Assembly: GCA_965231145.1 (NCBI GenBank)
Contig: OZ246420.1
Coordinates: 690,001-722,000, forward strand
DNA length: 32,000 nt
Reading direction: 5' to 3'
Source: Candidatus Saccharimonadota bacterium
Lineage (GTDB): Bacteria > Patescibacteriota > Gracilibacteria > Absconditabacterales > Absconditicoccaceae
This document shows positions 4,512 to 27,608 of this stretch, piece after piece. Below the pieces are notes generated by a model. That model saw only the letters and a list, made by a program, of their open reading frames with translations. It made no database searches and was not told where the DNA came from. The position numbers and the translations under genes are program-made. Position 1 is the first letter of the stretch. Each line of letters begins with the position of its first letter.

Positions 4512-4901
4512 ATGAGAAAAGGAGCATATGCTATTATTATCAATGATGAAAAAGAGATTCTTCTGACCAAAAAGAAGGACGTCTATATTTTGCCATGATG
4601 AAAACATGATGAAGGAGAAGATGACGAAAAGTGTATCAAAAGAGAACTTGGAGAAGAGATATGTATTCCTGAGAACGATATTACGATAGGTCATCATTAT
4701 AAAGACTCCATATGAGCAACTCCTCACTCAAAAACAGAAATACTATGTAAAACCTATTTTGTAACCATTAAAGATGAGAGCGCTGTGAAAGCAGGTAGGG
4801 AAATTAGTGAAGTTTTACGAACACGTGAGTTTCAGAACCATAATCTCTCAGAGATTACTAGAGAGATTATAGAAGCGCTACAAGCTGACACACTGATATA
4901 A
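4512..4901 (+). CDS. Nudix hydrolase
   Basis: Not in the track, because it is broken by TGA. Translation: 'MRKGAYAIIINDEKEILLTKKKDVYILPGGKHDEGEDDEKCIKRELGEEICIP...'. This is a full Nudix box GGx5Ex7REUxEExGU whose GG is encoded TGA TGA (4596-4601). Stop TAA 4899-4901. Confidence 0.9.
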
Positions 4902-4911
4902 GATATGATAG

Positions 4912-4939
4912 AAAAACTCGATAGTAGTATCGAGTTTTT
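4912..4939 (+). terminator. Rho-independent terminator after Nudix gene
   Basis: Hairpin CTCGAT-agtagt-ATCGAG (4917-4934) followed by TTTTT. Confidence 0.7.
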
Positions 4940-5108
4940 AAATTGTTCTAACTCACCGATTTTACCTGAGTCTCCTCTATGCGGTCTATAAATATTTCTC
5001 GGTCGTGAAAGCATGAATAACTCACAGGCTCGTAGTGCTATATCTGACTAGACCTTTTTGGTTACTTTTTAGGGATATGCTAAAAAGTAACGCCCCTCCC
5101 GGCAGGAG
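4940..5108 (+). repeat. Structured intergenic repeat element, copy A (candidate ncRNA or MITE-like element)
   Basis: Homologous to the reverse complement of 19010-19230. The 61-nt core 5048-5108 is near-identical to 19010-19069 and contains a perfect 12-bp hairpin GTTACTTTTTAG-ggatatg-CTAAAAAGTAAC. Further shared blocks: AACTC(A/G)CCGATTTT, (T/C)CTCCTCTA, GTGAAAG, ATGAATAAC. Confidence 0.8.
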
Positions 5109-5131
5109 TGAGAAAGAAATAAAAATGATTT

Positions 5132-5163
5132 AAAAAAAGACACTTGTAATAAGCGTCTTTTTT
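5132..5163. terminator. Bidirectional terminator-like hairpin
   Basis: A-run, then GAC..GTC stem (AAAAAAAGACacttgtaataagcGTCTTTTTT), then T-run. It lies between copy A and the convergent gene ending at 5167. Confidence 0.5.
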
Positions 5164-5166
5164 CAA

Positions 5167-5781
5167 CTATTTCAACTGAATAAGTTCATATTTTCATTCG
5201 TCATACGACACCAATCATTGCTTGTTTCCACACACCACATCGCCTTTGAGCTGAGTAAGTTCCTTACAACGAGCAAAGTCAGAGCTACATGCATGGAGCG
5301 TATCATTTACCTGAAGGAACGCAACCTTACTAAAGCTAAATGCCGCCTGTATCGGCTGTGCAAATGTTTGCTTACCGATAGTATATGTTTCGTGGTCTGT
5401 CGGTATGATCGGCATACATGACGATGAGAATGTCGATTTTACATATGGTTTCGTATCGATATAGCGAACAAACACATCAGTATAGAGCGTATTATTTTCA
5501 TAACAACGTTTCTCTGCGTCTCATGCAAAATGTATATCGTAACATCCTGACTCTATGTTATAGAAGTTAATCTGATGCTCTTGTGGCTCATAGATATTTC
5601 CATCGAAGACAAGCGTATTATCATCAGAGAAGAAGTTCATGCTTACAAAGACATTTTGTGTTACAAAAGATTTCGTATTATTGTCAAATCTGTATCCATA
5701 CACGACAAATAAGAAAATGAAGCTGAGGATAAAGGTCAGCATAGCCAATTTTACAAAAACTCTCAATGGAACACTTATCAT
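5167..5781 (-). CDS. Hypothetical membrane-anchored protein
   Basis: Track ORFs 5521..5781 and 5215..5475 share a frame. Joined across TGA 5521-5523 and 5215-5217 plus one more, ending at TAG 5167-5169. N-terminal TM segment 'VFVKLAMLTFILSFIFLFVVY'. No recognisable family. Confidence 0.6.
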
Positions 5782-5839
5782 CTTATTTCAATGCACTTAA
5801 AACATTAGTACGGACGTAATATACTACGTCCCTACATAT

Positions 5840-6313
5840 CTATTTTACTTCAACAATTTTTACATCATATCTTCCGCTATCTGCCCTTACTCTTACAACA
5901 TCTCCTTTCTGCTTTCCCTTGATAGCAATACCAAGAGGAGAATCAAATGAGATCGTACCAGAAAGAATATCTACTTCTCCACTACCTACGATAGTGTATT
6001 CAAATACTTTTTTACTTTCGACAACTTCAATCTTTACCTTTGATCCATAACGGATTTCATCCGTCTTTGCTTTCCCGTCTGAGATAATCTGTACATCAGC
6101 AAGAAACGCTTCGATTTCTGCAATACGCGCTTCTATAAGCTCTTTCTCTGCAATAGATGTATCATACTCTGAGTTTTCCGAGATATCTCCTTGTCCAATT
6201 GCTTCTTTCAGTCTTGAAAGCGCAGCAGGAAGGTCTTCATTTTTTAGTCTGTGTAACTCAGATACCAGGTTGTCATATCACTCCTTCGTAAGATAATTGG
6301 TATTTTCACTCAT
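5840..6313 (-). CDS. greA: Transcription elongation factor GreA
   Basis: Absent from the track (TGA at codon 12). 'MSENTNYLTKEGYDNLVSELHRLKNEDLPAALSRLKEAIGQGDISENSEYDTSIAEKELIEARIAEIEAFL...IRYGSKVKIEV...ISFDSPLGIAIKGKQKGDVVRV'. This is the GreA coiled-coil plus C-terminal domain pattern. Stop TAG 5840-5842. Confidence 0.9.
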
Positions 6314-6416
6314 ACGATTGTAACGCGTAAACAAAATAAAGCTTTACGGCAAAGCCGGAACTTACTTATGTAGATCGATTATCGATTTTCGAATATACTA
6401 CTTTATAGCACATATA

Positions 6417-6782
6417 TTATCATACTTGCGTAACTCAGCGATTTGCATTTTTTACATCTGCAATCTGTTGTTTCAGATGATCGAATGCATGATTTACGAG
6501 ATCACGTACATTTTCAAATCATCTATCTCCTTCTCTCTTATATGGGGGATAAACTTTCCCGTTTAACGTAAACAAGAATGTCCCATCATATCTTTCATCT
6601 TCTCCTTTGTGTTTTTCGATCGTGATGCGAATAGAGATGCGAGCATCTTCATGCCCCAGAACCTTCTTAAAGTATGCATCCATTTTTTTTGTAATGTTTT
6701 CTAGAACATACCCTCTAATACTTTCTTCAACCAATTCTTTGACTCATTTAAAGTAATACGTTACATCAATTTTTTCGTGCAT
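6417..6782 (-). CDS. Ribosome hibernation/S30AE-family (HPF/RaiA-like) protein
   Basis: 'MHEKIDVTYYFKGVKELVEESIRGYVLENITKKMDAYFKK...ARISIRITIEKHKGEDERYDGTFLFTLNGKVYPPYKREGDRGFENVRDLVNHAFDHLKQQI' fits the short-HPF beta-alpha-beta-beta-beta-alpha pattern. Four in-frame TGA. Stop TAA 6417-6419. Confidence 0.6.
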
Positions 6783-7026
6783 TTTACCATTGGTTATGGG
6801 GTAAAACTTCACTGCGCTGAGTATATCTATTGAAAGAGAAAAAGCAATCACAAAAAGGGTAAAATTCACCATCAATAGGAGACCTCAACCACATCTTTAT
6901 AATGTATTTTCTCTATGTCAATATACACTTCTCTTGCAAAAGAACAAAACTCTTCAAGTTTTTTACTATCCACACAAGTTCACTACAATGAGAGTATTAT
7001 ATTATATTCTTTTTCCATCTATCATC

Positions 7027-10000
7027 ATGAAAATACGCAAACATCACCGAGGGATTGCCCTAAGTTTTATCGCGATCAGTACTCTCTATTATTTCTGAAT
7101 GACAAGTCAGAAATCTTCTGCTGCTATGCTGGACTGTGCATCAGCGATGAGTATTACAGTACCGGTACAGGAGTGTCAGGGACTTGTAGAGCTCTTCAAT
7201 AACATGAATGGAGCTTCATGGACCAACAGTACAAACTGGAATCTTAATATCAATGTTTGTACTTGGTACGGAGTATCCTGTGCATTCCTTGATGGTCAGC
7301 GGCACGTGACCAGACTTTCTTTGGTAAATAACAATCTTTCTGGAAGTGGACTTCCGGCGAATATGTCTGGACTCAGATATATCACCGGTCTCGATTTAAC
7401 AACAAACCCCATAAGAGGAACCCTTCCATCAGAATGGTCAACGTGGACAGGAATACAAAGCTTTGCAATTTCACCAGCATATTCATTTCTCCTCTCAGGA
7501 ACATTACCTTCTTCATGGTCTACATGGACAAAGATCAAATACTTCAAAATTGGTCATGGTAATATCCAAGGTAATCTTCCTAGTTCTTGGTCTACATGGA
7601 CGGGTATACAACATTTTGAAGTAACACAAAATAACCTTACCGGAACATTACCTACTTCATGGTCAACGTGGACGGGTATCCAGCACTTCGGAGTAAGCGA
7701 CAATGACATAGAAGGATCGCTGCCATCAAACCGGTCAGGATGGATCAATATGTCATGATTTATCGCTTCCAACAACCAACTTACCGGCACACTTCCTACC
7801 TCGTGGTCAACGTGGACGAAGATTACTTCATTTGCTATTGATGGTAATCAAATCTCATGACCACTGCCTACAACCTGGTCAACATGGACGAAAATGAAAC
7901 GCTTTGGGGCAGGTAGCAATCAGCTAACAGGAACATTACCATCATCTTGGTCGACATGGACTGGTATCAATGTCTTTGAAGCCGGGAACAATCAGCTTAC
8001 CGGAACGCTTCCTTCTTCGTGGTCAACGTGGAGAAATCTTACATACTTTAGCGTACAAAATAACAAACTTCGTGGAACATTTCCATCAACTTACTCAGCA
8101 TGGAATTCGTTTGATGGACTTATTACTGTTTTCCGTAACAACTTTTTTGAAGGAGATATTCCTGCATCCTGGATAGGCATGACGGGGCTTTCAGCAACCT
8201 TCCTTAATAACAACTGTCTCAATCCCGTACAACCTAATCCTCCTTCAACATTTATCAATAGTAAAGCAGAAATCGGCTGGACAGGCACACAAACACACTG
8301 TGGAACCGATCTCGTTATTACTAAATCAAATAGCGCCTCTACAGGACTTATCGGATGAACATTCAACTATACTATTCACTATCTCAATAGCGGAGAGAAT
8401 GCTGTGACTTGAGCAAGCATCATCGACTACCTCTATTTATCTACAGGAGTTATGTTCGTCAGTTCTACTCCGACATTCACGAGTGAAACCGATGGGATGT
8501 ACTATTGGGATATTGGGACTCTTGAACCAATGCAATCCGGAGATATCGTTATCACTGTATCGTTCTCTGGGGATTATTTCTCTTCTGGAGACACCGTAAC
8601 AAACTATGCTGCTATCGGAGGATGGTATACATATGACCCAAATGAACTAAATAACGAAACCACTACTCCACCGGTCACACTTTTTGCTCCTGGAGCGACA
8701 GCTTCTGATCTCGTCATCAACAAGGTGAACGGAGCAGATACTGGTACTATCGGCGAACCTATTTCATATATTATCTCGTATTTCAATAGTGGAGACGTCA
8801 CTATTACAGGCACAAACATCTCTGACAGTCTACCGGGAGGTTTCAATTTCACAAGTGCATTTCCTGCTCCTACGCTTATTACTGGATCAGAGTTGTTCTG
8901 GGATATCGGAACTCTTACAGCGATGCAAAGTGGCATCATTATCATCACGGGATATGCAAACGAAACACTCGGATCCGGGGATGTTTTAGTAAACATGGCC
9001 GTGATCAATGGAATTCTTGATGACTATGATAACAATAATAATGTCTCTTTCACTTCACCTATCATACTTTTTGGTCCTACTATCTATTCGGATCTTACCA
9101 TCACGAAAGTAAATAATGCCGTAACAGGAACGATCGGTGGACTGATAAGTTATACTATCAATTATACAAACAGCTGAGCACAAACTGCTTCATGAATAAC
9201 TATTACTGATAGTTTACCTTCCGGATTATCTTTTGTTAGCGCGTTCCCAGCTCCTACTATAGCTACGTGATGAGATCTCTTCTGGAGTTTTGCTTCTCTT
9301 ACAGCAATGCAAACAGGCAAGATTATCATCACGGGATACATTGAAAATACTCTTGCTTCCGGAGATAGCATCATCAATACAGCTATCATTGATGGACTTG
9401 TCACTGATACTGCTACAGGAAACAATACTTCTACTACCCCACCCGTAACTGTTGTTGATCCTATTATATTCTCTGATCTCACGATTACTAAATCGAACAA
9501 TGCATCTACTGGCACAGTAGGTAGTCAGTTCAGCTATACGATCAATTATAGAAACAGCGGTGCCACTATGATCACAGGAATATCTATCGTTGATAGCCTT
9601 CCTGCCGGATTGTCCTTTGTCAGTGCTGCGCCAGCACCAACCATAGCTACATGAGGAAATCTCTTCTGGAATATTGGTACGCTGACTGCGATGCAATCAG
9701 GAAGCATTATCGTCACAGGATATCTTGAAAATACATTGTCATCCGGAGACACCATTATCAATACTGCTACTATTGATGGATTTCTTACCGACACTGTTAC
9801 AGGAAATAATTCCTCTACAACTCCTCCGGTAATTATATTTGATACGATAACATATGGGGATCTTAACATAGAAAAGATTGCAAATCAACTGACAGGAACA
9901 GCAGGAAACATCATCTCATATCTTATAAGGTATGTAAACGCAAGCTGAGCTCTTTCTCCTCTCTCTAGCATTACTATATCAGATCTTATTCCTGCAGGAC

Positions 10001-11316
10001 TGACATATATTTCCACAGACTTCTCATGATCTGCTGCAGACTTTAGCACAGGTATTACTGCTACCGGTTCAAATGTGACATGGAATATATGGAATGTAAC
10101 ATGATCTACTATCATGTCATGAGCATTCACTATCTATACCCAGATAGGAGCAGGCGTAGCATCAGGAACAGTATTGATGAACAGAGCGACTATCTTGAGT
10201 AGCGATATCATTGATATCTCTACAGGAGACAATACAGGTGTTGCTTCGGGCGTACTTGTCTTTGGACCACTTGTTACAGGAAACATGTCTGTCTTTAAAT
10301 TTACGGCAAATCCTATAGCTATCGCTTGAGACATCGTTTCATATATGCTGACATATCAAAATGATGGCGAAAGCACAGAAACAGGCATCTCTCTGATAGA
10401 TATTATGGATGATGGACTTACGTTCCTCGCAACAAACTTTACGACTGGATTGACTATTACTCCTATCGTCACTGGCGGCACGATCTTACACTGGAATATT
10501 ACCGGAAGCATCCTTCCTCACACATCAGGATCAATCCTTGTTTCAGCTATGGTAAACACCGGCGTTACTTCAGGAACTATCCTAGCAAACCACATCACTA
10601 TTACAGGAAATCGTACAGATACAAATCCGACATATGACTCAGACGTAGCATTCATTAATGTCATGGCTATCCCCGACGATCTGAGCGGAGGAAGTTATAG
10701 TACAACAGGAACCTCTACTGGCAATACGCCAACACCTCCAAACAATGATTCACGAGGATACGCAGGTGGTGGATTTGGAAGCAATCCTACGCCAAATATT
10801 GTCACACTCGGATCAGCTCCTACCCTCCTTGAGGATGAAGTATGTCCGTATAAAGATGGCGACTTTGAAAGATATAAAACAACTTTTAAAGATATTCAAA
10901 ATAGCGTCTTTAAACCAGCTGTAGATCTTATGCTCGACTACTGTCTCGTACAAGGTGAATACAACGGAGGAAAGATGTTTGGAGTATATAACTACCTCAG
11001 ATGGGGTGAAGCATATAAGGTATTCTCAAGACTTGCAGGTCTCAGCTTCTCTCGTACAGCCAATCCTGCTCACTGGTCAGACAGATATAGATTTGCTGGA
11101 CAGAAGGTGCATCTGTGGAATAGTATTACGTCACAGCGTCATGATCCAAGATCATATATCACGTATGCGGATATCTTTACACTCGGGAACAATCTTCTCA
11201 AATACTATAAGAAACCTCTTCTCGAGTACGACCCAACACTTAATTACAACAACGCAATCAGCAGAGGTAAATTTGCTCTGTTCATCCAAAACATTATCGG
11301 AAGAATCAAAAATTAA
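7027..11316 (+). CDS. Giant secreted surface protein: signal peptide, LRR repeats, DUF11 (conserved repeat domain) repeats, SLH-like C-terminus
   Basis: Six track ORFs (7099, 7894, 8452, 9307, 9691, 10345) are all in frame 1 and are separated only by TGA (about 15 in-frame TGA, no TAA/TAG). Start ATG 7027 ('MKIRKHH.GIALSFIAISTLYYF'). 1429 codons. Stop TAA 11314-11316. Confidence 0.85.
7318..8170 (+). repeat. About 11 LRR-type 24-aa coding repeats (consensus N.LTGTLPSSWSTWTGIQ.F)
   Basis: Read directly: 'GTLPSEWSTWTGIQSF', 'GTLPSSWSTWTKIKYF', 'GNLPSSWSTWTGIQHF', 'GTLPTSWSTWTGIQHF', 'GSLPSN(CGG)SGWINMSGF', 'GTLPTSWSTWTKITSF', 'G(TGA)PLPTTWSTWTKMKRF', and others. Confidence 0.85.
8304..10650 (+). 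repeat. About 6-7 DUF11-type ~125-aa coding repeats
   Basis: Recurring 'DL.ITK.N....G.IG...SYTI.Y.NSG......I.I.DSLP.G.SF.SA.PAPT......LFW.IGTL.AMQSG.III.TGY' with high nucleotide similarity between units (e.g. around 8910, 9300, 9680). Confidence 0.8.
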
Positions 11317-11340
11317 ATAAAAAATAAGAGATAATAGAAT

Positions 11341-11377
11341 AATAGATAAGGAATATTTCTTATCTATTATTTTTTTA
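11341..11377 (+). terminator. Rho-independent terminator of the surface-protein gene
   Basis: AATAGATAAG-gaatattt-CTTATCTATT followed by ATTTTTTT. Confidence 0.7.
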
Positions 11378-11380
11378 TTA

Positions 11381-11408
11381 AAAAAAGTCCATCTGTATAA
11401 TACAGATG
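11381..11408 (-). terminator. Terminator of the tRNA-Lys/tRNA(CCG) transcript
   Basis: Minus-sense CATCTG-tattata-CAGATG followed by GACTTTTTTT. Confidence 0.6.
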
Positions 11409-11419
11409 AACTACAATTG

Positions 11420-11492
11420 AGCGAGATACCGGATTCGAACCAGTGACCTCATCCCCCGGAGAGATGTGCTCTACCATCTGAGCTAATCTCGC
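11420..11492 (-). tRNA. tRNA with anticodon CCG; acceptor end looks tRNA-Gly-like, not Arg-like (identity uncertain)
   Basis: Minus-sense GCGAGAT TA GCTC AGATGGTA GAGC A CATCT CTCCGGG GGATG AGGTC ACTGG TTCGAAT CCGGT ATCTCGC T. Clean cloverleaf with canonical T loop. G1-C72, C2-G71, G3-C70, U73. U rather than A at position 20. Confidence 0.8.
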
Positions 11493-11569
11493 TGGTGGGC
11501 AGATTGGGAGTCGAACCCAAGACCTCCTGATTAAGAGTCAGGCGCTCTAGCCAGCTGAGCTATATGCCC
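11493..11569 (-). tRNA. tRNA-Lys (anticodon CTT), CCA encoded
   Basis: Minus-sense GGGCATA TA GCTC AGCTGGCTA GAGC G CCTGA CTCTTAA TCAGG AGGTC TTGGG TTCGACT CCCAA TCTGCCC A CCA. One acceptor mismatch (T6/C67). Abuts the next tRNA with no spacer. Confidence 0.9.
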
Positions 11570-11597
11570 TGCTTTATATAAAAGCGAAGTACTTAGT

Positions 11598-11625
11598 ATG
11601 ATATCTATTAGTCCTATAGAGTCAA
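11598..11625 (-). promoter_or_regulatory. Candidate sigma70-type promoter for tRNA-Lys/tRNA(CCG)
   Basis: Minus-sense TTGACT (11620-11625), 16 nt spacer, TATCAT (11598-11603), about 25 nt upstream of the tRNA-Lys 5' end. Confidence 0.4.
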
Positions 11626-11639
11626 CAGATTTAGGATAT

Positions 11640-11805
11640 AAAAAAAGCTTATAGGTTGATACCCTATAAGCCCCGGCTAAACCTGTAAGTAACTCACCGG
11701 TGGTCCAGCTATGGTGCCCCATGCGGAATTGTAACTAAGTACCCTAAGGTACCCCGAAGAGTCATAATATCTCCTCTGCAGGCACTCCACGCGTAGCCTT
11801 CCCTG
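11640..11805 (-). ncRNA. Candidate structured small RNA of unknown class, co-transcribed downstream of tRNA(CCG)
   Basis: A ~165-nt non-coding stretch, conspicuously GC-rich relative to its flanks, that starts right after the tRNA 3' end. It contains a C(UUCG)G hairpin (ACUC-UUCG-GGGU), a GUACC-UUAG-GGUAC hairpin and the palindrome CACCGGUG. It ends in a strong terminator GCTTATAGG-gtatcaa-CCTATAAGC + TTTTTTT (11640-11671). I could not match SRP, RNase P, 6S or tmRNA motifs. Confidence 0.45.
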
Positions 11806-11876
11806 TAGCCCGAACAGGATTCGAACCTGTACCAACAGAGACGGAGTCTGCTATCCTACCGTTAAACCATCGAGCT
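11806..11876 (-). tRNA. tRNA with anticodon CCG on a tRNA-Trp-like body (candidate CGG decoder)
   Basis: Minus-sense AGCTCGA TG GTTT AACGGTA GGAT A GCAGA CTCCGTC TCTGT TGGT ACAGG TTCGAAT CCTGT TCGGGCT A. A1-U72 first pair. The anticodon loop CUCCGUC differs from the tRNA-Trp loop CUCCAAA at positions 36-38. U37 is unusual. No A20. Weak D stem. Confidence 0.75.
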
Positions 11877-11885
11877 AGAAAGCTC

Positions 11886-11913
11886 ATTATAAGCATGAAC
11901 TTCATAAATACAA
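11886..11913 (-). promoter_or_regulatory. Candidate promoter for tRNA(CCG) + downstream RNA
   Basis: Minus-sense TTGTAT (11908-11913), 16 nt spacer, TATAAT (11886-11891), 9 nt before the tRNA 5' end. Confidence 0.5.
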
Positions 11914-12028
11914 TGAGAAAATACGTTACTTGAGGCCAATCACTTCCAGGATATTTCCAAGATATTTTTCATCTGACCAAAGTTTTTTCTGTTCAAGAAT
12001 ACTTTGTGTGATATATGCATGGGCATGA

Positions 12029-12385
12029 TTATAATGTGTTTCACAGAGCTGATCATGAGCATTTTTTATCAACACGTATATCGAACTCTTTACCGGACTG
12101 TGCAAGTCTATATGTTCCTACCTGCATATAGGTATCCACATATGACGGGATAAATGGTCGGTTGCACTTTATCGCTAATTCGCTATATTCGTCTCATGAA
12201 ACTCCTTCAAAAGATCAATTATCTCCTCGGGAAAATCGCTCAGTGAGGCATATGGATCTATCAGTTATTGCTCTCTCCGGATAAAGGCATCCCATCGCTC
12301 TGGCTAAAGTGAAAAATATGTTCTCATGTTCCTCACTGTAGTGCATATGGGAAACAATGCTTTGAAAGATATGGCTTTTGGCCAT
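12029..12385 (-). CDS. Hypothetical protein; possibly frameshifted/decaying (alternative 3' end at 11927)
   Basis: ATG 12383-12385 opens a 118-codon frame (TGA as sense) ending at TAA 12029-12031. This frame has 3 CGA codons, which are rare elsewhere. A second frame carries protein-like segments ('DPYASLSDFPEEIIDLLKEFHETNIAN', 'IKNAHDQLCETHYNHAHAYITQSILEQKKLWSDEKYLGNILEVIGLK*'). The frames switch at an A6 run. Confidence 0.35.
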
Positions 12386-12432
12386 GATTTTTGTATACTG
12401 TTGACAGAATTAGCTCGTGTACTCCAAAGCCT

Positions 12433-13434
12433 ATGAAACAGTACGATCCATCTCACTACAAAGTAGTTTTCTTCTCTTCTGCTCCGATCGGAGTTCCTTT
12501 TCTTGAACAGTTAGCAAAGGATAAAAGATTTGAAATTGCTGGAGTTGTCTGCGCTCCTGACAGACCATCCGGTCGTGGCATGGAAGTGCAACAAAATATT
12601 ATTAAAAAAACCGCATTTCAGATCATAGAGCAAAGAGCAGAGAGCAGAATTAATTGAGAATTGAGAATTGAGAATTGAGAATTTCCTATATTAACTCCAA
12701 GTAAAATTAACCCAGAAAAAAGCGATGAATGAAAAGAGTTCTATGAACAAATAAAAGCTCTTGATGCCGATTTTTTTGTGGTGATTGCGTATGGGAAGAT
12801 TATGCCGCAAAGCATATTAGACATACCAAAGCTTGGACCAATCAATGTGCATCCATCACTCTTGCCGAAATATCGCGGCGCCTCACCTATCATCTCTGCG
12901 CTGTTGCATAATGAGACTATGACGGGCGTGACGATCATGTACATGGATGCAAAGATGGATGAAGGAGATATCCTCTCCTCTCTTGGATTTTCTATCGATC
13001 CGTCATGGAACGAAGCAGACCTTACTCATAAGATGACACAAATCTGACCAGAGCTTTTGTGTAATACACTATGGGATTTCGGCAAAGAACATATCAGCAG
13101 AAAACCTCAGGATCATAGCAAAGCAACATATGCGACAAAGTTTACCAAAGAAGACGGCAAAATTGATCCGCGACAAGACTCATTACAAACTATTTACAAT
13201 AAATATCGTGCATTCTATCAGCGACCAAAAATTTTCTTCATACACAACGACAAGAGAGTCATCATCGAAAAAATGGTCTTCGACCATACCCCGACAGCTC
13301 GTCGGGGTGAAGAAAAAATGATAGATGAAAATAATCAGTTACACGCTTCTATCCTGGAATGTATGGTGAAACCGGAAGGAAAAAAAGCTATGAGTTGGGA
13401 AGAATTTAAAAGAGGATACATCCATATGAAATAA
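12433..13434 (+). CDS. fmt: Methionyl-tRNA formyltransferase
   Basis: Track ORFs 12391, 12778 and 13057 are all in frame 1, joined over four TGA. 'KVVFFSSAPIGVPFLEQL...VVCAPDRPSGRG', 'FFVVIAYGKIMP', 'GPINVHPSLLPKYRGASPI', 'ETMTGVTIMYMDAKMDEGDI', 'PQDHSKATYATKFTKEDGKID'. Carries a repeat-derived insertion at 12622-12683. Confidence 0.9.
12652..12683. repeat. Heptanucleotide microsatellite (AATTGAG)x4.6 inside fmt
   Basis: Units at 12652, 12659, 12666 and 12673, plus a partial unit. Encodes 'N-G-ELRIEN-G-EF' with two TGA codons. Confidence 0.9.
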
Positions 13435-16258: not shown

Positions 16259-16756
16259 TTAAAAATCATCTTCCTGAGGATATTTCTTTGCGTAATAATC
16301 ATGCCATTTTCTATTATCCTCTGTATCTTGTGGGATCTCTTGTTTGAAAATATATCGTCCCTGCGCAAATGAACCTCTCTCTTCTCTGTCTTGTAACTGT
16401 ACTTTTTCAAGCTCAGTTGGATCGATGCTATATTTTTTACTTATAGTATCGATAATATCACGAAACGATTTTAACTTCTCCATATTTTCTCACATATCTG
16501 TCAGGACATCTATTGCCTCTTTGATATCCTTCATTTCTTTCATCAGCTCTTTTTGTAATTCGTCGAGTTTTCTTGTCGTATCTTCATGAAGTTCTTTTAC
16601 TAGTTGATTCAACTCTTTTAGTTCCTCCTCTGCCTTTTCATACAGAGCATCTATCAGTGCTTTTCCAGTTTTTTTCATGCACAAAACCTTCCATCCCATG
16701 AGAAGCTGCTTATCGATGAGCTTGTCTCTATACAGTTTATTGATGACAAATACCAT
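16259..16756 (-). CDS. MazG-like / phosphoribosyl-ATP pyrophosphohydrolase-like all-alpha NTP pyrophosphatase family (paralog 1)
   Basis: Track ORFs 16490..16756 and 16259..16483 are joined over TGA 16490-16492. N-terminal 'INKLYRDKLID' (compare the KLVRDKIPE family) and C-terminal 'REERGSF'. Confidence 0.5.
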
Positions 16757-16780
16757 AGTATCAAGGGAAAGAAGTAGAGA

Positions 16781-17227
16781 TTACTCTTGTATTGGATATT
16801 TTCATTTCACCAATAGGTCATAGACTTCTGGAACATCTTTAGAAACAGTAATATCTTCAATGTAATATCACTCAGTAAAGCTTCATCGACTCGTTTTTCT
16901 CGAGACCTGCATATCAAGAATGGTTTTTAACTGTATAGCATGTGTATGTAATATCTGGTTGATACGTTGTTGTTCCGGTAGAAGTTCTATTGGATTAGCA
17001 TCATGCGATATAAGTGATTCAACTATTTCCTTTGCGTCAGCAACATGCTCTAGTAGTTTTCCATCGGTAGAAGGTGTTTCCCCCAGCTCCAATGTGTGGT
17101 ATAACTTTTCCTTCAAGGCTTGTATAAGTTCCTCTCCAGTAAGATTTTTATAGGTGACCTTACACCTGCTCAATAATTGTGGCACCATCCTATCTCTCAC
17201 CAATCTATTTATCTGAAAAGTAGTCAT
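16781..17227 (-). CDS. MazG-like all-alpha NTP pyrophosphatase family (paralog 2)
   Basis: 'MTTFQINRLVRDRMVPQLL...NLTGEELIQALKEKL...'. Continues past TGA 16883-16885 ('SR-G-SFTEGYYIED') to TAA 16781-16783. Collinear with paralog 1. Confidence 0.5.
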
Positions 17228-19230: not shown

Positions 19231-19233
19231 ATT

Positions 19234-19258: not shown

Positions 19259-19341
19259 TTTCTATTTATCTATAAGATTTACTTCTGTGCTATGTTCAAG
19301 AGTTGGAAGAGAACATCAATGTTACGATTTTGTAGCTTTGC

Positions 19342-21249
19342 TCATGAAGCTATCATACCAGGCTTGTATCTATTGATAATAGTGACAAGCTGATCTGATG
19401 TAAGTAATGTTGATGCATTAAAGCTTGAGATAAGAGATTTCCCGTTTGCTGTGAGTCCCATAAGACCAAGATCACAGGCCTGTGTGATCACAGTCTGCAT
19501 ACTTGGTGTGAAAGTACTGTAGTCAGAGTATTTTGTTATGTCGCATAGAGCGTTATGGACGATAGTTTGTTTCTTCACATTTTTTGCAAACTGGACGAAC
19601 ATCTGAGCAGCACCATATCTTGAAACTGGCGCATACATTTGTGTTGCTGAGAGTTTTATAGGAGTAATACCATATCTATATGCCCATCCGATAAGTGTAT
19701 TTACAACGCTTATTGACGTCGTACCTGTTCCAAATGGCATAGGAGAAAGAACTGTCGATGTCGGACTCTTGATGATAATACCACTCGTAAGCACAGGAGT
19801 TATAACTCTTCCGGTGAAAATAGGATTTATAACCCTACCTGTAAGGACAGGAGTTATAACTCTTCCTGTAAGAACAGGATTGATGATTACTCATGTATTT
19901 ATTCTTCCGGTAAGCACAGGATTTATAATGACACCTGTATTTATTCTTCACGTAAAGATAGGATTGATAACTACTCCTGTATTCACTCTTCCGGTAAATA
20001 TTGGATTGATGATTGGTTTTCCTGTTGCGTAGATACTTGCATTACATCTTGTCATGAGATTTGGTACAAGTGGATTGATATACGTAATACTTATACCATA
20101 CACACCAGGCGTCATATATGTATGCCCACTGGTGAAGGTTGGCGGAACTCCACTTCAAAGCCATGGCCCGAAAGCGATTGGACCTTCTCCCCAATAAATG
20201 CTACCAATAACTCCTCCGAATCCTGTCAGGGTAATCGTTACAGGAAGTGGAGCCATGCCTGATGTCGGAGCAACAGAAAGATTACATGTTGGGATAGTAT
20301 ACTGACATGTAAGACTACATCCTGAACCTGGAAGACCATTGCTTGCTCCAAGATCACATTGTTCTGGTGCTTCCACAATTCCATTTCCACAGATTGGTCT
20401 TGGAGTACTTTTGCCCATAACGACTACTGTTGCTGAACACATGCTTGTGTAGTTCGGAGAGTATGGATTAACCGCACTTGCTGTTATCGTGTATGTCCCG
20501 CTTGTCATATATGTATGCGGTGTTGAAAACCATACACCTGTCACCGCAGTTCCTATCCATGGTCCAAATGTTGATGTACTATCTCCTCGTGAAACAGAAT
20601 TTATCTGTCCTACAGATCCTGTTACTGTTGCAATAACGTTGAGCGGAGCTGTTCCTGTTGTCGGAACAACAGTGATAGCACATTTTGGCATAACGAGTGT
20701 ACATGTTGCACTACATCCCGATGCTGGAAGGCCATTGTTTGCTCCTGCATCACACTGCTCTGGTGCTTCTACGATTCCATTTCCACAGATCGGTTGTACT
20801 CTTCCTGTATTGATCGGAGCTTTCGTACCTACGGCTACATTGTTGCTTGAGCAGAATGCGCTTGCATTACGGTCTATCCATGTAAACATCGGATCTGTAG
20901 CATATACTACGTTATTGGTAATAGTATATACTCCTGTAGTCGTATATGTGTGGTTTGCATACCAACGAACATGTGTTGGGTTTACCCATATCGATCCTGT
21001 GATTGGTCATGAGAAAAAACCATCTCCCCAGTTGATACTACTATATGCTTCGACATATCCACTTGAGATAGATCTGTATACTGTACCACTGAGTGTCACC
21101 GTATGAGGCACTGATCCTGCAGGCGGCGTTACCGAGATGTCACATATATCCCATGGGCCACTTGCAGCAAAAGTGCTTGAACCCACCGCAGCGACTAGAA
21201 GCGCGATTCACCGCATGTAAATCTTTTTTAGTTGTCTTCACATTTTCAT
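19342..21249 (-). CDS. Secreted surface protein: signal peptide, 3 PKD-like modules, 2 Cys-rich CGNG..E.CD repeats, 11-aa tandem repeat linker, SLH-like C-terminus
   Basis: Track ORFs 20155..20889 and 19342..19794 are in one frame with an open stretch between them. It extends upstream over TGA to ATG 21247-21249 ('MKMGRQLKKIYM.GIALLVAAVGSSTFA'). 'ICGNGIVEAPEQCD(A/L)GA(N/S)NGLP.SGCS.TC' occurs twice. 'P.(T/S)G.APL.V' PKD-like. 635 aa. Confidence 0.8.
19780..20019 (-). repeat. In-frame 33-nt (11-aa) tandem repeat, about 6-7 units
   Basis: 'PIINPIFTGRVNTGVVINPIFT-G-RINTGVIINPVLTGRINT-G-VIINPVLTGRVITPVLTGRVINPIFTGRVITPVLTSG'. The hyphenated G are TGA (19948-19950, 19891-19893); the same column is GGA/GGT in sister units. 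Confidence 0.9.
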
Positions 21250-21341
21250 ATATGGAGAGAGAAATTAAAAATACCTCCTCTATATAATGATTAAGCAAGA
21301 CAATGACAAGAACTAATTAACACCGTAAAACTAAAACCTCA

Positions 21342-21370
21342 AACCTAAAAGTAGATTTACGTTTTAGGTT
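21342..21370 (-). terminator. Terminator-like hairpin after apbE
   Basis: 9-bp stem AACCTAAAA / TTTTAGGTT with an 11-nt loop, followed on the minus strand by a T-rich tract. Confidence 0.5.
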
Positions 21371-21384
21371 TTAAGATTTCAGTT

Positions 21385-22248
21385 CTACGAGAATAGTTTT
21401 CCCAAATACCCATCTTTCTGCCAGAAACTTCCGTCTGCAAAGACTATCACGCCGGTGATATCTTTTTCGACTGTAAGCAGCTGTTTTCCTTTTTCCGGTC
21501 ATGAGACAAATACAGCAGTGCTATAAGCGTCAGCGAGTAATCATGTGGGAGCTGCGATGTAGACGCCGGCGATGGAAACGATAGGTTCGCCGGTGTGTGC
21601 ATCAAGCAGATGATGAAACTCCCCCACTCTTCTCTTTGCGCCATTGCTTGATGCGACTGAAAATCCATCCACGTGTATGGTTCAAATAAGCCGAGAAAGA
21701 TCGAAAGGATTTTCGAGCCCGACATCATATCAACCATGAGCGATGATATCGCCTCCGAAATCCAAAAGAAAATGAGAAAATCCTGCAGTGAGGAGCCTGT
21801 GGGAAAGTTTGTCCAATAGATATCACTTTCCGACTGAGCCAAATTCGATTTTTACACCGTGGTGTAAGATCACGGAGTGATCGGAAATTTCAACGTGCTG
21901 ATATCCCATGGATCATCACGCTTTACGTTGAAATGAATAGGTATGATCGTATCAGTATGATTCCAGTGTTGAGATAATAGTAGGATCAAATGCTCCTCAT
22001 GTTTTATGAGCAAGATCCAGTGAAAATATGAGAAGTTCATATGCTTCGTCATCAAGCGGGATAGGTTGTTCTTGTGTTTTATTGATTGTATCAAGCCGAT
22101 TTCCAGGAATAAATCTGGAGTAACGCTCTTCAAACTTTTTGCATATCGAAAAACAATCCTGCACAAGCTGCGTAGGATCGTTTTCAGAAAGAATATCTAT
22201 CGTCAACACCGAGCCGCATGACTCCTGACGAAACACGTACTGTTGCAT
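21385..22248 (-). CDS. apbE: FAD:protein FMN transferase (ApbE family)
   Basis: '..SRFIPGN.LDTIN..', 'T-G-GAFDPTI', 'ESY-G-YD', 'GSVGK-G-YLLDK', 'LDFGGDIIAHG', 'HHLLDAHTGEP', 'LADAYSTAVFV'. About 10 in-frame TGA. Stop TAG 21385-21387. 287 aa. Confidence 0.9.
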
Positions 22249-22252
22249 AAAA

Positions 22253-22792
22253 CTATTTTTCTAATGCATGAAGAGCTTTATCAAAAGCTTGCGCTGTAAG
22301 GCTTGAACCATTTACGTATGTAACTTTTACATCAGCAATATTTTTTCCAACGATCTGTCCTGCGATTCCGCTGATGAACATATCCTGATACATCTTGCTT
22401 TTTACTGCATGCGCTACATTTTTTGCTTCAACTGCAGTGATCACATCGTTCTCGATAGTGACTGTTGCATCGAGAGGTTCTGGACCTGCAGGACTGTCAT
22501 ATGTGCTAGTAAGGTGAAATATACCATTGAGCGATGTTTCTGCAGATGAGTCATTCGAATGAGAGACAGAATGATCCATATCTGTCATAGCATCGTGGTT
22601 CATGCCAGTTGCAGGAGTCTGTTCAGCATTAGTTTCTACTGACGTAAAACCCGTTAATGATGTCTCATTTTTTAATTCTGCTCTCTGCTCTTTGCTCTCT
22701 GAATTATTAGCAGGAATAATAGAGCATCATTGTAGAGTAAGTGTTAGTATAACAAAAAATCCAAAGATCGCTTTTTGATGTTGAAGAGCCAT
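22253..22792 (-). CDS. FMN-binding-domain lipoprotein (likely ApbE substrate)
   Basis: Start ATG 22790-22792. Lipobox 'LTLQ-G-CS' with G = TGA. C-terminal 'VKVTYVNGSSLTAQAFDKALHAL' matches the flavinylation context D..(S/T)GA(T/S).T. Stops 4 nt before the apbE start. Confidence 0.7.
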
Positions 22793-22910
22793 ACAAAAAA
22801 ACAAAAATATAAAATACTATATTCTTATAATTATTTTTAACTCGTTATACATAGCAATTTCAGGTTAAGAGAAACTTAAGTATAATAGAGCTTGATATAA
22901 GACCTTATTT

Positions 22911-23321
22911 ATGACATACTACAGAAAACACTTTAATCTCTCGTTCATTACAATGAAAGCATTAGGCAAGGATGACACGCATAGGATATTTAAAACCTCT
23001 TTTGCAAGTGTCTACTCACTCTATATCCAGAAAGCAGAGAAAAAAGGACGCACGAAAGAAGAGGTCGATACGATTATTTTCTGGTTAACAGGTTATAGTA
23101 AGAAAAACCTGCAGCAACAAATTAATAAGAAAGTAGATTTTGAAACGTTTTTCGCGGAAGCGCCTGAACTCCATCCCAATGTGTCAAAAATCACCGGTCT
23201 TATTTGTGGCTACCGTGTTGAGGAAATTGAAAACAAGCTTATGCAAAAGCTTCGTTATCTGGATAAGTTGATTGATGAGTTAGCAAAAGGAAAAGCTATG
23301 GAAAAGATTTTGAGAAAGTAA
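22911..23321 (+). CDS. DUF2200-family protein
   Basis: '[40 protein letters not shown]...[10 protein letters not shown]...[22 protein letters not shown]' matches my recollection of DUF2200. The true start may be the internal Met at 22953. Confidence 0.6.
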
Positions 23322-23376
23322 TCATATCATTATAATACATTTATCTTTTCACTTCTCTTCAAAATGATTAAGCACA

Positions 23377-23491
23377 TTATGATGACTATGGACCATCGAT
23401 GTACTCCCAGGATTTCGAAGATCTTGATGGGCACAGCTGGCAGATTACGTATATGGATATGAGTGCAGATGGTATGAGCCAAGGTGCATAA
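23377..23491 (+). pseudogene. C-terminal remnant of a glyoxalase/VOC-type gene
   Basis: A short open frame 'AHYDDYGPSMYSQDFEDLDGHSWQITYMDMSADGMSQGA*' holds only the terminal beta-strands ('F.D.DGH.W.') of a VOC fold. There is no N-terminal part, and a stop lies immediately upstream. Confidence 0.45.
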
Positions 23492-23573
23492 TTACATCGC
23501 CTCCTGGTAAAGCATCTAATACTTTATAAGAAATTATATTGATTTCTGAGATTTTCAGAGTAAAAGTAGACAT

Positions 23574-23963
23574 ATGAAAATTATGAGAAAACGAGCTATA
23601 TTTCTAGTACTGCTAAGTTATGCTTTCTGAGCATCAACATTTTCTCATATGTTGACTATGAACCATCCAGCGATGGATATGACAAGAGATCATAGTAGTC
23701 ATGAAACGTTGGATACGGATAGCGCTCATAAAAAATGTGTGAAAACATGTGAAAATATAGAGAAAATGAAAATGTCTTCATTGGTAAGTGCTATCATCAT
23801 AAAAACTATTACTTTCAGTTATATTAGCTTTCCCCTTCCTGCACTTGAAACAATACACTCTACTCCGCTAGCATATTATTATATGAGTAGTTGACCACCG
23901 TGAGAATTTACATTTTCCCCACTTCATCTCGCACACATCGCATCCACCGTTCTGACAATATAA
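23574..23963 (+). CDS. Small secreted His/Met-rich protein (possible metal-binding)
   Basis: 'MKIMRK.AIFLVLLSYAF-G-ASTFSHMLTMNHPAMDMTRDHSSHETLDTDSAHKKCVKTCE...'. Extended over three TGA to TAA 23961-23963. Confidence 0.5.
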
Positions 23964-24019
23964 GATATTTTTTCTTCGCTTGCATGAAAATATCTTTTTA
24001 TATTCTTTTTTTGATGTAG

Positions 24020-24592
24020 ATGAAAAAATTACTTACTATAGGATCACTTATAGCAGCAGGCACACTAATCAGTGGATGTACCTTACAGAATACCAATAAT
24101 AATCACGTTATGATGAGTGGGCACTCTATGAACCACGACATGGATAATAACATGATGATGCACGACATTGAAAATGAAGAAGAATTTATCATCAATATGA
24201 TACCCCATCATCAAGAAGCTGTTGATACTGCACAGATCGTCGTAGCACAATCTACCAATAGCGATCTTAAGAAACTTGCTCAAAATATTATCGATGCTCA
24301 AACCAGAGAGATCACTATGATGAATGGTTGGTTACAACAGCGGTATCCAAATAGCACTATCAAAAGCAACTATCAAAATATGATGCCCGAGCTTACAACT
24401 CTGACAGGAGACGCTTTAGATACCGCCTTCTTACAGTGAATGATAATACATCATATGTGAGCAATTCATATGGCGCAAAGCGTATTAAAAGCGGAGCATA
24501 GAACTGAAACCATGACTCTTGCCAATAATATTATCAGCACACAACAGCAAGAAATTGTGATGATGAAAAACATGTTACAAAATATCAAATAA
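24020..24592 (+). CDS. DUF305-family lipoprotein (copper-stress associated family)
   Basis: Lipobox 'LISGC'. Met/His-rich linker. Two DUF305 half-repeats: 'FIINMIPHHQEAVDTAQ...LAQNIIDAQTREITMMNGWL' and 'FLQ-G-MIIHHM-G-AIHMAQ...LANNIISTQQQEIVMMKNML'. Stop TAA 24590-24592. Confidence 0.8.
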
Positions 24593-24606
24593 CACTTAAC
24601 TAAAAG

Positions 24607-24635
24607 GCTTGTACATATATATGTACGAGCTTTTT
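24607..24635 (+). terminator. Rho-independent terminator after DUF305 gene
   Basis: 10-bp stem GCTTGTACAT / ATGTACGAGC followed by TTTTT. Confidence 0.75.
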
Positions 24636-24743
24636 AAATACAAAAAAACAGCTAGAATTAGCCGTTTTATATGTCAAATGTTTGCTTATATAAACCCTTT
24701 TAGATGTAGCGAGACTACTTTATAATGCTCTTTAGCTTAATAC

Positions 24744-25484
24744 CTAGAATCGAATCGAAATAACTCCATCAGATACGAACTTCAAACTAAGGATAATAAT
24801 TCCTATAAGAATAACTTTTCTAAATATTTGTTCAGAGATGCTCTTCACAATCTTCCTCCCGATATATGAACCTATCAGCGCTATGAGAAGCAATAAAGGT
24901 ATAAGGAAATAATATTGTCTCTCTAAAAATCATTGTCAGAAATAGAGAGGTATTCTTGTGGCATCGACTATCAGAGCAACTAGAGCAATAGTAGCAATAT
25001 ATTGCTCTTTCGGCAAAGCAAATGCTGTCATAAATGCGCCTCTTAACACTCATCATGTACCAATGAGTCAGGCAGTAAACCCTGACAGTCATCATCCTAC
25101 GATACCCGCCATGGGACTATTTGGCAGTGTAAACTTCGGTTTTCGTAATACATATGAAGCAAATAGTGTCAGAATAATACCCAGCACTATTTTTAGTATA
25201 TTTTGATCGATGTAAGACACTAGTAAAGACCCAATGACTGTTAAAACAACACTTGGGATTCCAAAGAGTAACGCTACTCTCTTATTAACATGATTACGGA
25301 AGAAGTAGAGTCTCGAAGCATTTCCAAAGATATGATAAATTGCTACCAGCAGCAATGCTGTCTGGAAGTCTAAAACAAGCAATGCCAGCGGCAGGAAAAT
25401 ACTTGATGATCAGAATCAAGCTATAGTTCAAAGCACCTCTGAAATAAGTGCTACGATTAACAGAAAGAATATAGTTTGCATCAT
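24744..25484 (-). CDS. TauE/SafE-family anion exporter (membrane protein)
   Basis: 246 aa, reconstructed over about 12 TGA. 'EVL-G-TIA-G-F-G-SSSIFLPL' and 'GIVG-GG-LSGFTA-G-LIGT-GG-VLRGAF' are the duplicated TauE glycine motifs. Multi-TM. Stop TAG 24744-24746. Confidence 0.85.
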
Positions 25485-25562
25485 TGATATATCGGGTAAA
25501 AATATTTAATATAGTTAATTTTTACACTTAGGGCAACAATCTCAATAAATATTATACTATAG

Positions 25563-25592
25563 AAAAGCTCCTCTCTCTATGAAGGAGCTTTT
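25563..25592 (-). terminator. Terminator after delta-60 repeat protein gene
   Basis: 10-bp stem AAAAGCTCCT / AGGAGCTTTT. Confidence 0.6.
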
Positions 25593-25601
25593 TCTCATTT
25601 T

Positions 25602-27608
25602 TTACAGTCTCATTAGCATAAGCATCGCCCATCATCTTGGAAGCGGACTAAATAGATCTGTCTTCACTTTTATTACTCATAATTCATGCAGTTTATCTAC
25701 ATGTTTCACATACCGGTTCTCGTCATCTCCATTATAGGCTGATCCATATAATAACCTGGAGAGGATAGTTGCGAATTGTGCCTTAGTAACTGCTTCATCC
25801 GGATTAAAGTTTTTATTTACCTCATTAGTCACATTATTGATACCCATCACACCGAGCTGACATGCAAGCTTCGCATATATCTGATATTCTGCATCACCAT
25901 TTATCATATCATCAAACGCACACTCTCTGCTCTCATCCGGTTGCTTGTCCAATACATTGATCGCGTAATTACTGATCATTTTTGCCGCATCTCTTCTGAG
26001 TAATACTCATGTCATATTTGCCTTGATACAATCTGACATAGTTGTGATGCTGTGGCCATATGCAAAGTTATATGCATCATTCATCTCTCATTCCATACAG
26101 TTGAGCTGCTGTGGCTGTGCAACAATCTCACTTGATGATAAAATCTCAGATGAACTATCCGTATTATCATCCACCTGTTCTGTGGTGTCCTCTGACTCTA
26201 TCGTTGTTCAGGTAGCGGCGACAGTTGTTCAGGTAGCGGCGACAGTTGTTCAGGTAGTATCAGATGTAACTGCTACGCCTCATTGCAACAGACTCATTCA
26301 CTCACACAAACCATCATATTGCGTGGGAGATATATCTCCATTGGGACAGTTATCTACTGGTGCACGATAGACTTTTCCAGCTCACTGAAGAGCAGGACTA
26401 TTATCTCATGCTGATGCTATCAAACGAGTCATATATGGATCAGAAATGGGTGAGCCATTAAAATACTCAAAGTATCCAGCTACAATAATACTACCATCAT
26501 TATGCAACAGATGAGTATTAATTTCAGCATCAAAACCTGAACCTCCTACGAACGAGCTATCAAGCACCCCATTACTATCCAAACGAGCTATACGATTTGC
26601 TTCTACCCCACTATAAGAAGTAAATGCACCTCCCAGCAATATAGAATCTCCAGTTTCAATGGAGACAGATATCGGCACGTTATTAAATCATCCCCCCATA
26701 GTAAAACTTGTATCGAAACTTCCATCTGTATGTAAACGAGCTATGCGGTTTGCAGTATGACCATTATAATCAGTAAAAGAACCAACTGCAATTATCTTTC
26801 CATCTGACTGTGCAACAATTTGATATACATGGTGATTGAAACCAGAACCAACATTGAAACTATTATCTATAGTAGCGTCCTCATTCAAACGAATAATACG
26901 GTTTGAACTAACTCAACTAAAGTGAGTAAACTGTCACGCGGCAATTATCTTCCCATCGCCCTGTACAATCAATGACGACACCTCAAATTGACTAGTAATT
27001 TCACCGCTAAATAGACCGTTAGCTATATTAAATCACGTATCTCTCGTTCCATCTGTGTTGAGACGGACAAGAGCCCTCGTACTAAATCATGAATAGTTAC
27101 TAAAGTTTCATCATACAAGGAGTTTTCAATCTGTAAGTTGTTTGATCACACTTACCTGCTGACTGGAAGTGGGGAAACCCGAACCGATCTGAAACGTATT
27201 GTCTCTCGTCCCATCACTATTGAGACGCACTATACGATTGGTTGTAACACCACTAAATGATGTAAAACTTCCTCACACAACGACTTTACCATCCTGCTGT
27301 AACTCAATAGAAGCTACCGCGCTATTAAATGTACCAATAACATTAAATCACGTATCTCTCGTTCCATCTGTGTTCAAACGCAACACCCTACTCGCAGATA
27401 GTCCATTAAAATTACTAAAATATCCCGCAACGAGAATTTTACCATCGGGTTGTTCTATCATCTTCAAAGGTACATTATCAAGACCACTTCCTCCAGAATC
27501 GAATGTAGTATCAACCATCAAACCCGCAAATACAGCTCACGCATGAAATATAAATATACTCATTGCAATGACAGAGATCAAAACCCTACTATACTTCTTC
27601 ATAGACAT
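25602..27608 (-). CDS. Secreted delta-60/beta-propeller-repeat surface protein with Thr-rich linker and SLH-like C-terminus
   Basis: One frame from ATG 27606-27608 ('MSMKKYSRVLISVIAMSIFIF') through track ORFs 26688..26888, 26406..26678 and 25677..25979 to TAA 25602-25604. About 7 units of '..DGK....G.F..(F/Y).G.....R(I/L).RL..DG..D..F..G.GF'. More than 20 in-frame TGA, many on the repeat glycines. Confidence 0.8.
26203..26258 (-). repeat. 21-nt in-frame tandem repeat (2.7 units)
   Basis: GTTGTTCAGGTAGCGGCGACA at 26203 and 26224, partial at 26245. Encodes 'T-G-TTVAA' heptads with G = TGA each time. Confidence 0.9.

Follow-up and report, generated by a model that had tools for sequence, protein, structure and literature searches.

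Probable tryptophan meaning of CGA and CGG in a code-25 Absconditabacterales locus

A 32,000-nucleotide stretch of Candidatus Saccharimonadota bacterium (assembly GCA_965231145.1, contig OZ246420.1, positions 690,001 to 722,000; hereafter the window, with all coordinates counted from its first letter) raises the question of which amino acid is inserted at its scarce CGA and CGG codons. An earlier note on this DNA, made from the letters alone, had proposed a possible reassignment of both codons from arginine to tryptophan. From the sequence comparisons described below we conclude, with a probability of roughly 0.87, that in this genome UGA stands for glycine, and CGA and CGG stand mainly for tryptophan, not arginine. 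The change from arginine to tryptophan is supported by three lines of evidence: conserved columns in distantly related protein families, codon-level alignments of ten genomes, and two tRNA(CCG) genes that lack A20. The nucleotide A20 is the main arginine identity element and the main determinant for arginyl-tRNA synthetase (ArgRS).

Codon usage and codon pairing across relatives

Under the standard bacterial code the open reading frames (ORFs) of the window are short. Long ORFs are obtained only with code 25, in which TGA is read through, and about 27 long genes are found once UGA is taken as a sense codon. In-frame TGA accounts for 132 of the 8,851 curated codons (149 per 10,000), and codon-level alignments with relatives pair TGA with glycine codons 713 times; UGA is therefore a sense codon for glycine, and the window comes from a code-25 organism. 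GC content is 37.8%. The PNPase is 60-82% identical to its best-matching named proteins, which belong to Absconditabacterales, Absconditicoccaceae and SR1, and gene order is common to the window and its relatives. By these sequence similarities the organism is a member of the order Absconditabacterales (candidate division SR1).

The scarcity of CGA and CGG, pointed out in the earlier note, is evident from the codon census. The curated codons include 15 CGA, 8 CGG and 73 TGG, next to 261 other arginine codons (AGA 150, CGT 58, CGC 28, AGG 25); per 10,000 codons, usage is 16.9 for CGA, 9.0 for CGG, 82.5 for UGG and 169.5 for AGA. A low GC content with AGA as the main arginine codon and rare CGA and CGG is also the pattern of the published Absconditabacterales code, for which usages of 13-37 (CGA), 1-24 (CGG) and 35-76 (UGG) per 10,000 were given (Shulgina & Eddy, eLife 2021, PMC8629427). 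The window falls within the published range for CGA and CGG and slightly above it for UGG. Its pnp gene contains neither CGA nor CGG, and the conserved arginines named in the earlier note are indeed written with other codons (AGA in Nudix RELGEE, CGC in MsrA QYRS, CGC in Fmt YRG, and CGT twice in PNPase RREIGHG). All ten CGA/CGG codons cited there were found at their coordinates, in frame with UGA as sense, and a further 13 bring the total to 23, of which 8 lie on tryptophan or aromatic columns.

Thirteen orthologous genes were aligned at codon level across ten genomes, those of the window and of nine relatives with syntenic loci (L002, L015, L016, L019, L020, L021, L023, L024 and L026), which were obtained by genome scan, metagenome scan and exact-protein look-ups. 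Only columns with well-aligned flanks were counted, and gave the following codon pairs:

CGA with TGG, 57; CGA with another arginine codon, 4
CGG with TGG, 36; CGG with another arginine codon, 0
AGR/CGY arginine codons with one another, 3,088; with TGG, 1 (in about 3,800 pairs)

Taken together, CGA and CGG have TGG as their partner in 93 pairs and another arginine codon in 4, and across relatives they also exchange freely with one another. Among the 47 columns that hold CGA or CGG, 23 have TGG elsewhere in the column and four have an arginine codon, two of these four being highly variable. One PNPase column reads W-x-z-W-x-x-x-W-x-x, where x is CGA and z is CGG, and L020 has CGA at the universally conserved tryptophans of MsrB 'CGWPSF' and MsrA 'GCFWC', as well as at that of 'FW.AEGYHQ' in MsrA, all of which are TGG in the window.

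These counts bear on the alternative that CGA and CGG still encode arginine and that their overlap with tryptophan columns reflects chance or tolerated W-to-R changes caused by T-to-C mutation. TGG does become CGG by a single transition, two CGA codons of the window lie on arginine-type columns, and the tRNA(UCG) of L002 looks arginine-type. However, TGG partners outnumber arginine partners by 93 to 4 for the two codons, while for the other arginine codons about 3,800 pairs include a single one with TGG; CGA behaves like CGG despite needing two changes to become TGG; the invariant tryptophans of Fmt, MsrA, MsrB and CopM are among the positions affected; and A20 is missing from both tRNA(CCG) genes of the window. 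We consider a retained arginine meaning highly improbable, and the ten-genome codon pairs appear effectively to refute it.

Although CGA is two mutations from TGG, it is the commonest partner of TGG, which fits synonymous drift along CGA-CGG-TGG under a tryptophan meaning. Mutation pressure does not fit, and neither does C-to-U RNA editing, which would turn CGG into UGG in the mRNA by a single edit and leave the code itself unchanged, because an edited CGA would become UGA and be read as glycine; yet CGA occupies tryptophan columns as often as CGG, and dedicated tRNA(CCG) genes without arginine identity are present. Editing was rejected on account of the edited CGA, and we find it scarcely credible.

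CGA and CGG sites within the window

A Codetta-like test was made at window scale by comparing the Pfam scores that the proteins obtain when CGA and CGG are translated as R and as W. With W, four profiles scored higher by 2.4 to 7.3 bits, and these constitute the evidence from distant families: Formyl_trans_C (+7.3 bits), SLH (+4.4), DUF305 (+3.7) and PKD (+2.4). NUDIX (-0.1) and TauE (0) were essentially indifferent. The net change for W was +12.6 bits, including two losses that are given with the counter-examples below; W carries a heavy Pfam penalty at any column that is not tryptophan. The sites favouring tryptophan are these:

13222 to 13224, plus strand: CGA at the tryptophan of Fmt 'RAFNPWP'; the strongest site
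13171 to 13173, plus strand: CGA at the tryptophan of Fmt 'IDW'; TGG in L015, F in L021
24341 to 24343, plus strand: CGG in DUF305/CopM-like 'GWLQQ-CGG-YPN'; W in both CopM domains
25713 to 25715, minus strand: CGG at the tryptophan position of the last SLH repeat; aromatic column
7732 to 7734, plus strand: CGG in the leucine-rich repeat (LRR) unit 'LPSN-CGG-SGW'; sister-unit comparison
20587 to 20589, minus strand: CGA at the tryptophan of PKD-like 'S.S-W-GDG'; sister-module comparison
16355 to 16357, minus strand: CGA in MazG-like paralogue 2 'AQG-CGA-YIF'; aromatic column

The first of these was absent from the earlier note. Its column is W in four of five solved Fmt structures and TGG in L024, and across relatives it reads CGA/CGA/CGG/CGG/CGA/CGA/CGG/TGG; with W, the Formyl_trans_C score rises as given above. 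The other Fmt codon had been described as close to the IDW tryptophan, which the TGG of L015 corroborates, and the solved Fmt structures have their W one residue off from it. Similarly, the tryptophan column proposed for DUF305 is confirmed by the W at the aligned site of both CopM domains, and here W also raises the DUF4142 profile by 4.0 bits. For the SLH codon, assigned earlier to the tryptophan position of the repeat, a column of 37 homologues contains W, Y and F, with R only in close relatives in which the database had translated CGR as R. L002 and L015 carry CGA at the same place, and with W the SLH profile also gains a second matched stretch.

Comparisons inside the window agree with these families. 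The CGG of the LRR unit had been contrasted with tryptophan in nine sister units, of which eight have TGG and the ninth has TAC. The CGA on the core tryptophan of the PKD-like module faces TGG in both sister modules, as had been claimed, and with W the PKD alignment extends across the site. At the MazG-like site the column holds W in L020 and Y in both L019 and the tandem paralogue.

Other sites do not discriminate between the two amino acids:

4818 to 4820, plus strand: CGA in Nudix 'EVL-CGA-TREF'; CGA also in L002
7048 to 7050, plus strand: CGA at a signal-peptide n/h boundary
21211 to 21213, minus strand: CGG at a signal-peptide n/h boundary
23592 to 23594, plus strand: CGA at a signal-peptide n/h boundary

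The assignment of the Nudix codon to an E..E..W tryptophan is not backed by Pfam, which gives 47.5 bits with R versus 47.4 bits with W; solved-structure alignments end before this site. Searches of solved structures for the MazG-like, SLH and Nudix C-terminal sites returned no usable alignment. The three signal-peptide codons, put forward as counter-evidence, are in frame as described but say nothing either way. Both ApbE sites lie in variable loops and are uninformative, as are those in TauE, g17342 and the N-terminus of MsrB.

YidD (membrane-protein insertion efficiency factor, PF01809) and Met-tRNA formyltransferase (PF00551 and PF02911) are encoded in a single continuous ORF (12196 to 13434, plus strand), and the same fusion was called in relatives L020, L021 and L032. 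The Fmt of L002 contains an insertion of about 95 residues (about 10180 to 10620 of that locus, plus strand) that is missing from the Fmt of the window and is unusually dense in CGA/CGG, with five such codons. The MazG-like proteins are two tandem, diverged paralogues (16259 to 17227, minus strand) that both open with an 'N[KR]L[YV]RD[KR]' motif; they are putatively MazG/PRA-PH-like, without a meaningful Pfam match. A search with paralogue 1, the only one searched, matched no solved structure. One copy each was detected in L019 and L020.

The tRNA(CCG) genes and the case against tryptophan

The space between the LRR gene and yidD-fmt contains three tRNA genes, all on the minus strand, that the earlier note overlooked. 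They and their flanking signals are as follows:

11806 to 11876, minus strand: tRNA(CCG)-B (ARAGORN; Rfam tRNA model, 55.4 bits)
11644 to 11674, minus strand: intrinsic-terminator-like hairpin with T-run, ending the tRNA(CCG)-B unit
11598 to 11625, minus strand: sigma-70-like promoter TTGACT-16-TATCAT upstream of tRNA-Lys and tRNA(CCG)-A; consensus match only
11493 to 11569, minus strand: tRNA-Lys(CUU), 67.4 bits; apparently co-transcribed with tRNA(CCG)-A
11420 to 11492, minus strand: tRNA(CCG)-A (ARAGORN; Rfam, 60.1 bits)
11386 to 11412, minus strand: intrinsic-terminator-like hairpin with T-run after tRNA(CCG)-A

These elements are predicted to form two apparently ordinary transcription units, each with a terminator-like hairpin. 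A 130-nt GC-richer spacer separates tRNA(CCG)-B from its terminator (11675 to 11805, minus strand). The spacer folds moderately well (z = -2.3 including the terminator), matches nothing in Rfam, and may represent either a small RNA or an extended 3' trailer.

tRNA(CCG)-B has acceptor pairs A1:U72, G2:C71 and C3:G70, with A73, U37 and a 4-nt variable loop, and its 7-nt D-loop (AACGGUA) has U20 and no A20. These acceptor pairs, together with A7:U66, recur in the tRNA-Trp(CCA) of the sister order BD1-5 (GCA_003260345.1, an assembly listed with PMC13092985), which has G73 where tRNA(CCG)-B has A73. Overall, tRNA(CCG)-B is about 60% identical to each of SR1 tRNA-Arg(CCU), the tRNA(UCG) of L002 and the BD1-5 tRNA-Trp. 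tRNA(CCG)-A, whose start abuts the encoded CCA of tRNA-Lys, has G1:C72, C2:G71, G3:C70, U73 and G37, and a D-loop (AGAUGGUA) that likewise has U20 and no A20. Compared with verified E. coli reference sequences, it shares 71.6% identity with tRNA-Arg(CCG), of which it lacks precisely the A20 position, and 69.9% with tRNA-Gly(GCC). The SR1 tRNA-Arg(CCU) of L026 keeps A20 and A73 (D-loop AACGGGAUA), which indicates that the canonical arginine identity is used in the order and that both tRNA(CCG) genes of the window have lost it.

The two genes would be former arginine-type or tryptophan-type scaffolds that ArgRS no longer recognizes. At least one of them would be charged by tryptophanyl-tRNA synthetase (TrpRS) through C34, C35 and the acceptor end, with G36 having to be tolerated. 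On the strength of its acceptor end, which is like that of tRNA-Trp in the sister order, tRNA(CCG)-B would be the better candidate. For CGA, the decoder would presumably be a tRNA(UCG) whose gene lies in another part of the genome. At the syntenic position, L002 carries one tRNA(UCG) (8231 to 8304 of that locus, minus strand), in which A19:U56 replaces the near-universal G19:C56. About 400 kb of related loci contained neither an SR1 tRNA-Trp(CCA) nor any additional tRNA(UCG/CCG), and viral contigs scanned with tRNA patterns yielded nothing relevant.

Several observations weigh against the tryptophan reading, beginning with two CGA codons of the window:

1307 to 1309, minus strand: CGA on an arginine/lysine column of a glucosaminidase-like domain; AGA in L002; counter-example
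16886 to 16888, minus strand: CGA in MazG-like paralogue 1 'KTS-CGA-GSF'; weak counter-example

Among 152 glucosaminidase homologues, drawn from a representative library of 1.84 billion proteins, the column at 1307-1309 contains R 94, K 25, S 13, G 5, N 4 and Y 3, and no W. At 16886-16888 the paralogue and orthologues have R/E/R, so that the alignment with 'EERGSF' offered earlier as counter-evidence is real but weak, and the glucosaminidase-like site is the stronger of the two. With W, the ApbE and Glucosaminidase profiles lose 3.7 and 1.4 bits. As for the tRNA genes, the U37 of tRNA(CCG)-B is unusual, and the acceptor end of tRNA(CCG)-A together with its U73 makes up the full glycine set, the same as in SR1 tRNA-Gly(UCC). 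G73, shared by the four Patescibacteria tRNA-Trp(CCA) sequences that were compared, is missing from both genes. The tRNA(UCG) of L002 keeps A20 and A73 and is in this respect arginine-type, even though L002 has CGA and CGG at tryptophan positions. A published rule for calling a tryptophan-acceptor tRNA requires G73 and no A20 (PMC8629427); both genes of the window lack A20 and neither has G73. The reassignment suggested in the earlier note is supported by columns, codon pairs and tRNAs, with the Nudix site, the two arginine-type CGA columns and the lack of G73 as caveats.

Some of these points would be accommodated by an ambiguous or incomplete reassignment, in which CGA and/or CGG are mostly tryptophan and a competing tRNA, either an arginine-type tRNA(UCG) as in L002 or the glycine-like tRNA(CCG)-A, inserts arginine or glycine at a meaningful rate. 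CGA persists on the R/K and R/E/R columns, the L002 tRNA(UCG) retains its A20 and A73, and one window holds two tRNA(CCG) genes with differing identity sets, one of them with the acceptor pairs and U73 of SR1 tRNA-Gly(UCC). A non-C36 anticodon (UCA) is, moreover, already accepted by the SR1 glycyl-tRNA synthetase (PMC8629427). However, CGG is paired with glycine or arginine codons in 0 of 89 pairs and CGA with arginine codons in only 4 of 174, and mixed products would be costly at the catalytic and structural tryptophan positions that CGA and CGG hold. We regard such ambiguity as unlikely. Glycine as the main meaning of CGG was rejected, since relatives show no CGG-Gly pair. If CGA and CGG are mainly tryptophan, as we prefer, the leftover CGA codons at arginine-type positions suggest that the reassignment is incompletely consolidated.

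Gene neighbourhood and relation to published codes

Products of the window, with domains assigned by Pfam, include PNPase, Nudix, GreA, a 1,442-residue LRR surface protein, the YidD-Fmt fusion, a nucleoside hydrolase, an SDR protein, the two MazG-like paralogues, MsrB-MsrA, a PKD/SLH surface protein, ApbE, DUF305, TauE and an SLH-anchored repeat protein. The region from 6988 to 11876, between a 121-residue ORF (6417 to 6782) and yidD-fmt, looks like a variable insertion spot: the 4.3-kb LRR gene and the three-tRNA cluster are missing at the syntenic position in L015, L016 and L019-L021, and L002 and L024 have different insertions there. The last 4 kb of the window (28000 to 32000) form a low-GC island (27-29%, versus 36-43% elsewhere in the window) that is likely a defence island, as judged from its two genes. 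The first (28743 to 30125) encodes a domain like that of type I restriction specificity subunits, and the second, which starts at 30459 and runs past the window end, encodes an AriA/ABC-like ATPase. The code does not change within the island: these two ORFs contain 9 and 11 TGA codons in frame.

The reassignment, though real here, is already known because Shulgina & Eddy (eLife 2021, PMC8629427) predicted it for the group: with Codetta, CGA was called tryptophan in 10 of 10 Absconditabacterales genomes and CGG in 5 of 10. The earlier note had correctly mentioned such a computational proposal, and a 2026 paper in NAR (PMC13092985) restates the reassignment as accepted. The window agrees with the prediction in clade, codon pair, tryptophan meaning and UGA as glycine, as well as in low GC, dominant AGA, rare CGA and CGG, and tRNA(CCG) without A20. 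It differs in having A73 and U73 in place of G73, two CCG isoacceptors and a few CGA codons on arginine columns. The non-G73 discriminators, the dissimilarity of the two CCG isoacceptors and the leftover arginine-column CGA codons are new, if modest, details.

NCBI translation table 25 (SR1/Gracilibacteria) likewise has UGA as a sense codon for glycine, here abundant and aligned with glycine, but keeps CGA and CGG as arginine and so places arginine at conserved tryptophans of the window. A standard table 25, with all other sense codons unchanged, does not describe this locus, in which CGA and CGG behave as tryptophan. In public protein collections, alignments show that SR1 relatives were translated with the wrong table (entries P0004, P0021, P0025 and others), with W at glycine sites (apparently from TGA read as tryptophan), fragments cut at TGA, and R at CGA/CGG tryptophan sites.

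Reassignments elsewhere in bacteria offer partial parallels. In Anaerococcus and the RFN20 Bacilli (Onthovivens), as here, a rare arginine codon of the CGN box in a low-GC genome was taken over by tryptophan and is read by a dedicated tRNA(CCG). There, however, only CGG changed and CGA stays arginine through tRNA-Arg(ICG), whereas both codons change here, as expected where tRNA(UCG), not ICG, reads CGA; CPR bacteria are reported to lack tRNA-Arg(ACG) (PMC8629427). The CGG-only pattern of Firmicutes (Anaerococcus, Onthovivens, Peptacetobacter) is not seen in the ten genomes, which have 57 CGA-TGG pairs versus 4 of CGA with arginine codons. The change of AGG to methionine in Candidatus Enterosoma (CAG-288 Bacilli) is alike in that the tRNA appears to be an arginine-type scaffold minus A20. 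It concerns another codon and amino acid, and AGG became the dominant methionine codon there, whereas CGA and CGG are rare here.

Sense-codon reassignments are very rare in bacteria, and that of CGA and CGG to tryptophan has so far been only computer-predicted; the window adds an independent confirmation of it at codon level, drawn from ten related genomes. Such genomes are mistranslated by table 25 and to a greater extent by tables 11 and 4. The tRNA(CCG) pair provides concrete substrates for charging, one with a tryptophan-like and one with a glycine-like acceptor end, neither with A20 or G73. A further idea, which we hold to be doubtful, is that the CGG-decoding tryptophan tRNAs are A20-less scaffolds with A73 or U73, not duplicates of the G73 tRNA-Trp, and that their charging may differ, marking an ambiguous intermediate. 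Were it true, SR1 TrpRS may recognize substrates outside the canonical G73 rule; tRNA(CCG)-B would take tryptophan and tRNA(CCG)-A glycine, making CGG a sense codon of dual meaning; and the arginine-type tRNA(UCG) of L002, with the leftover arginine-column CGA codons, would mark a reassignment at an ambiguous intermediate stage.

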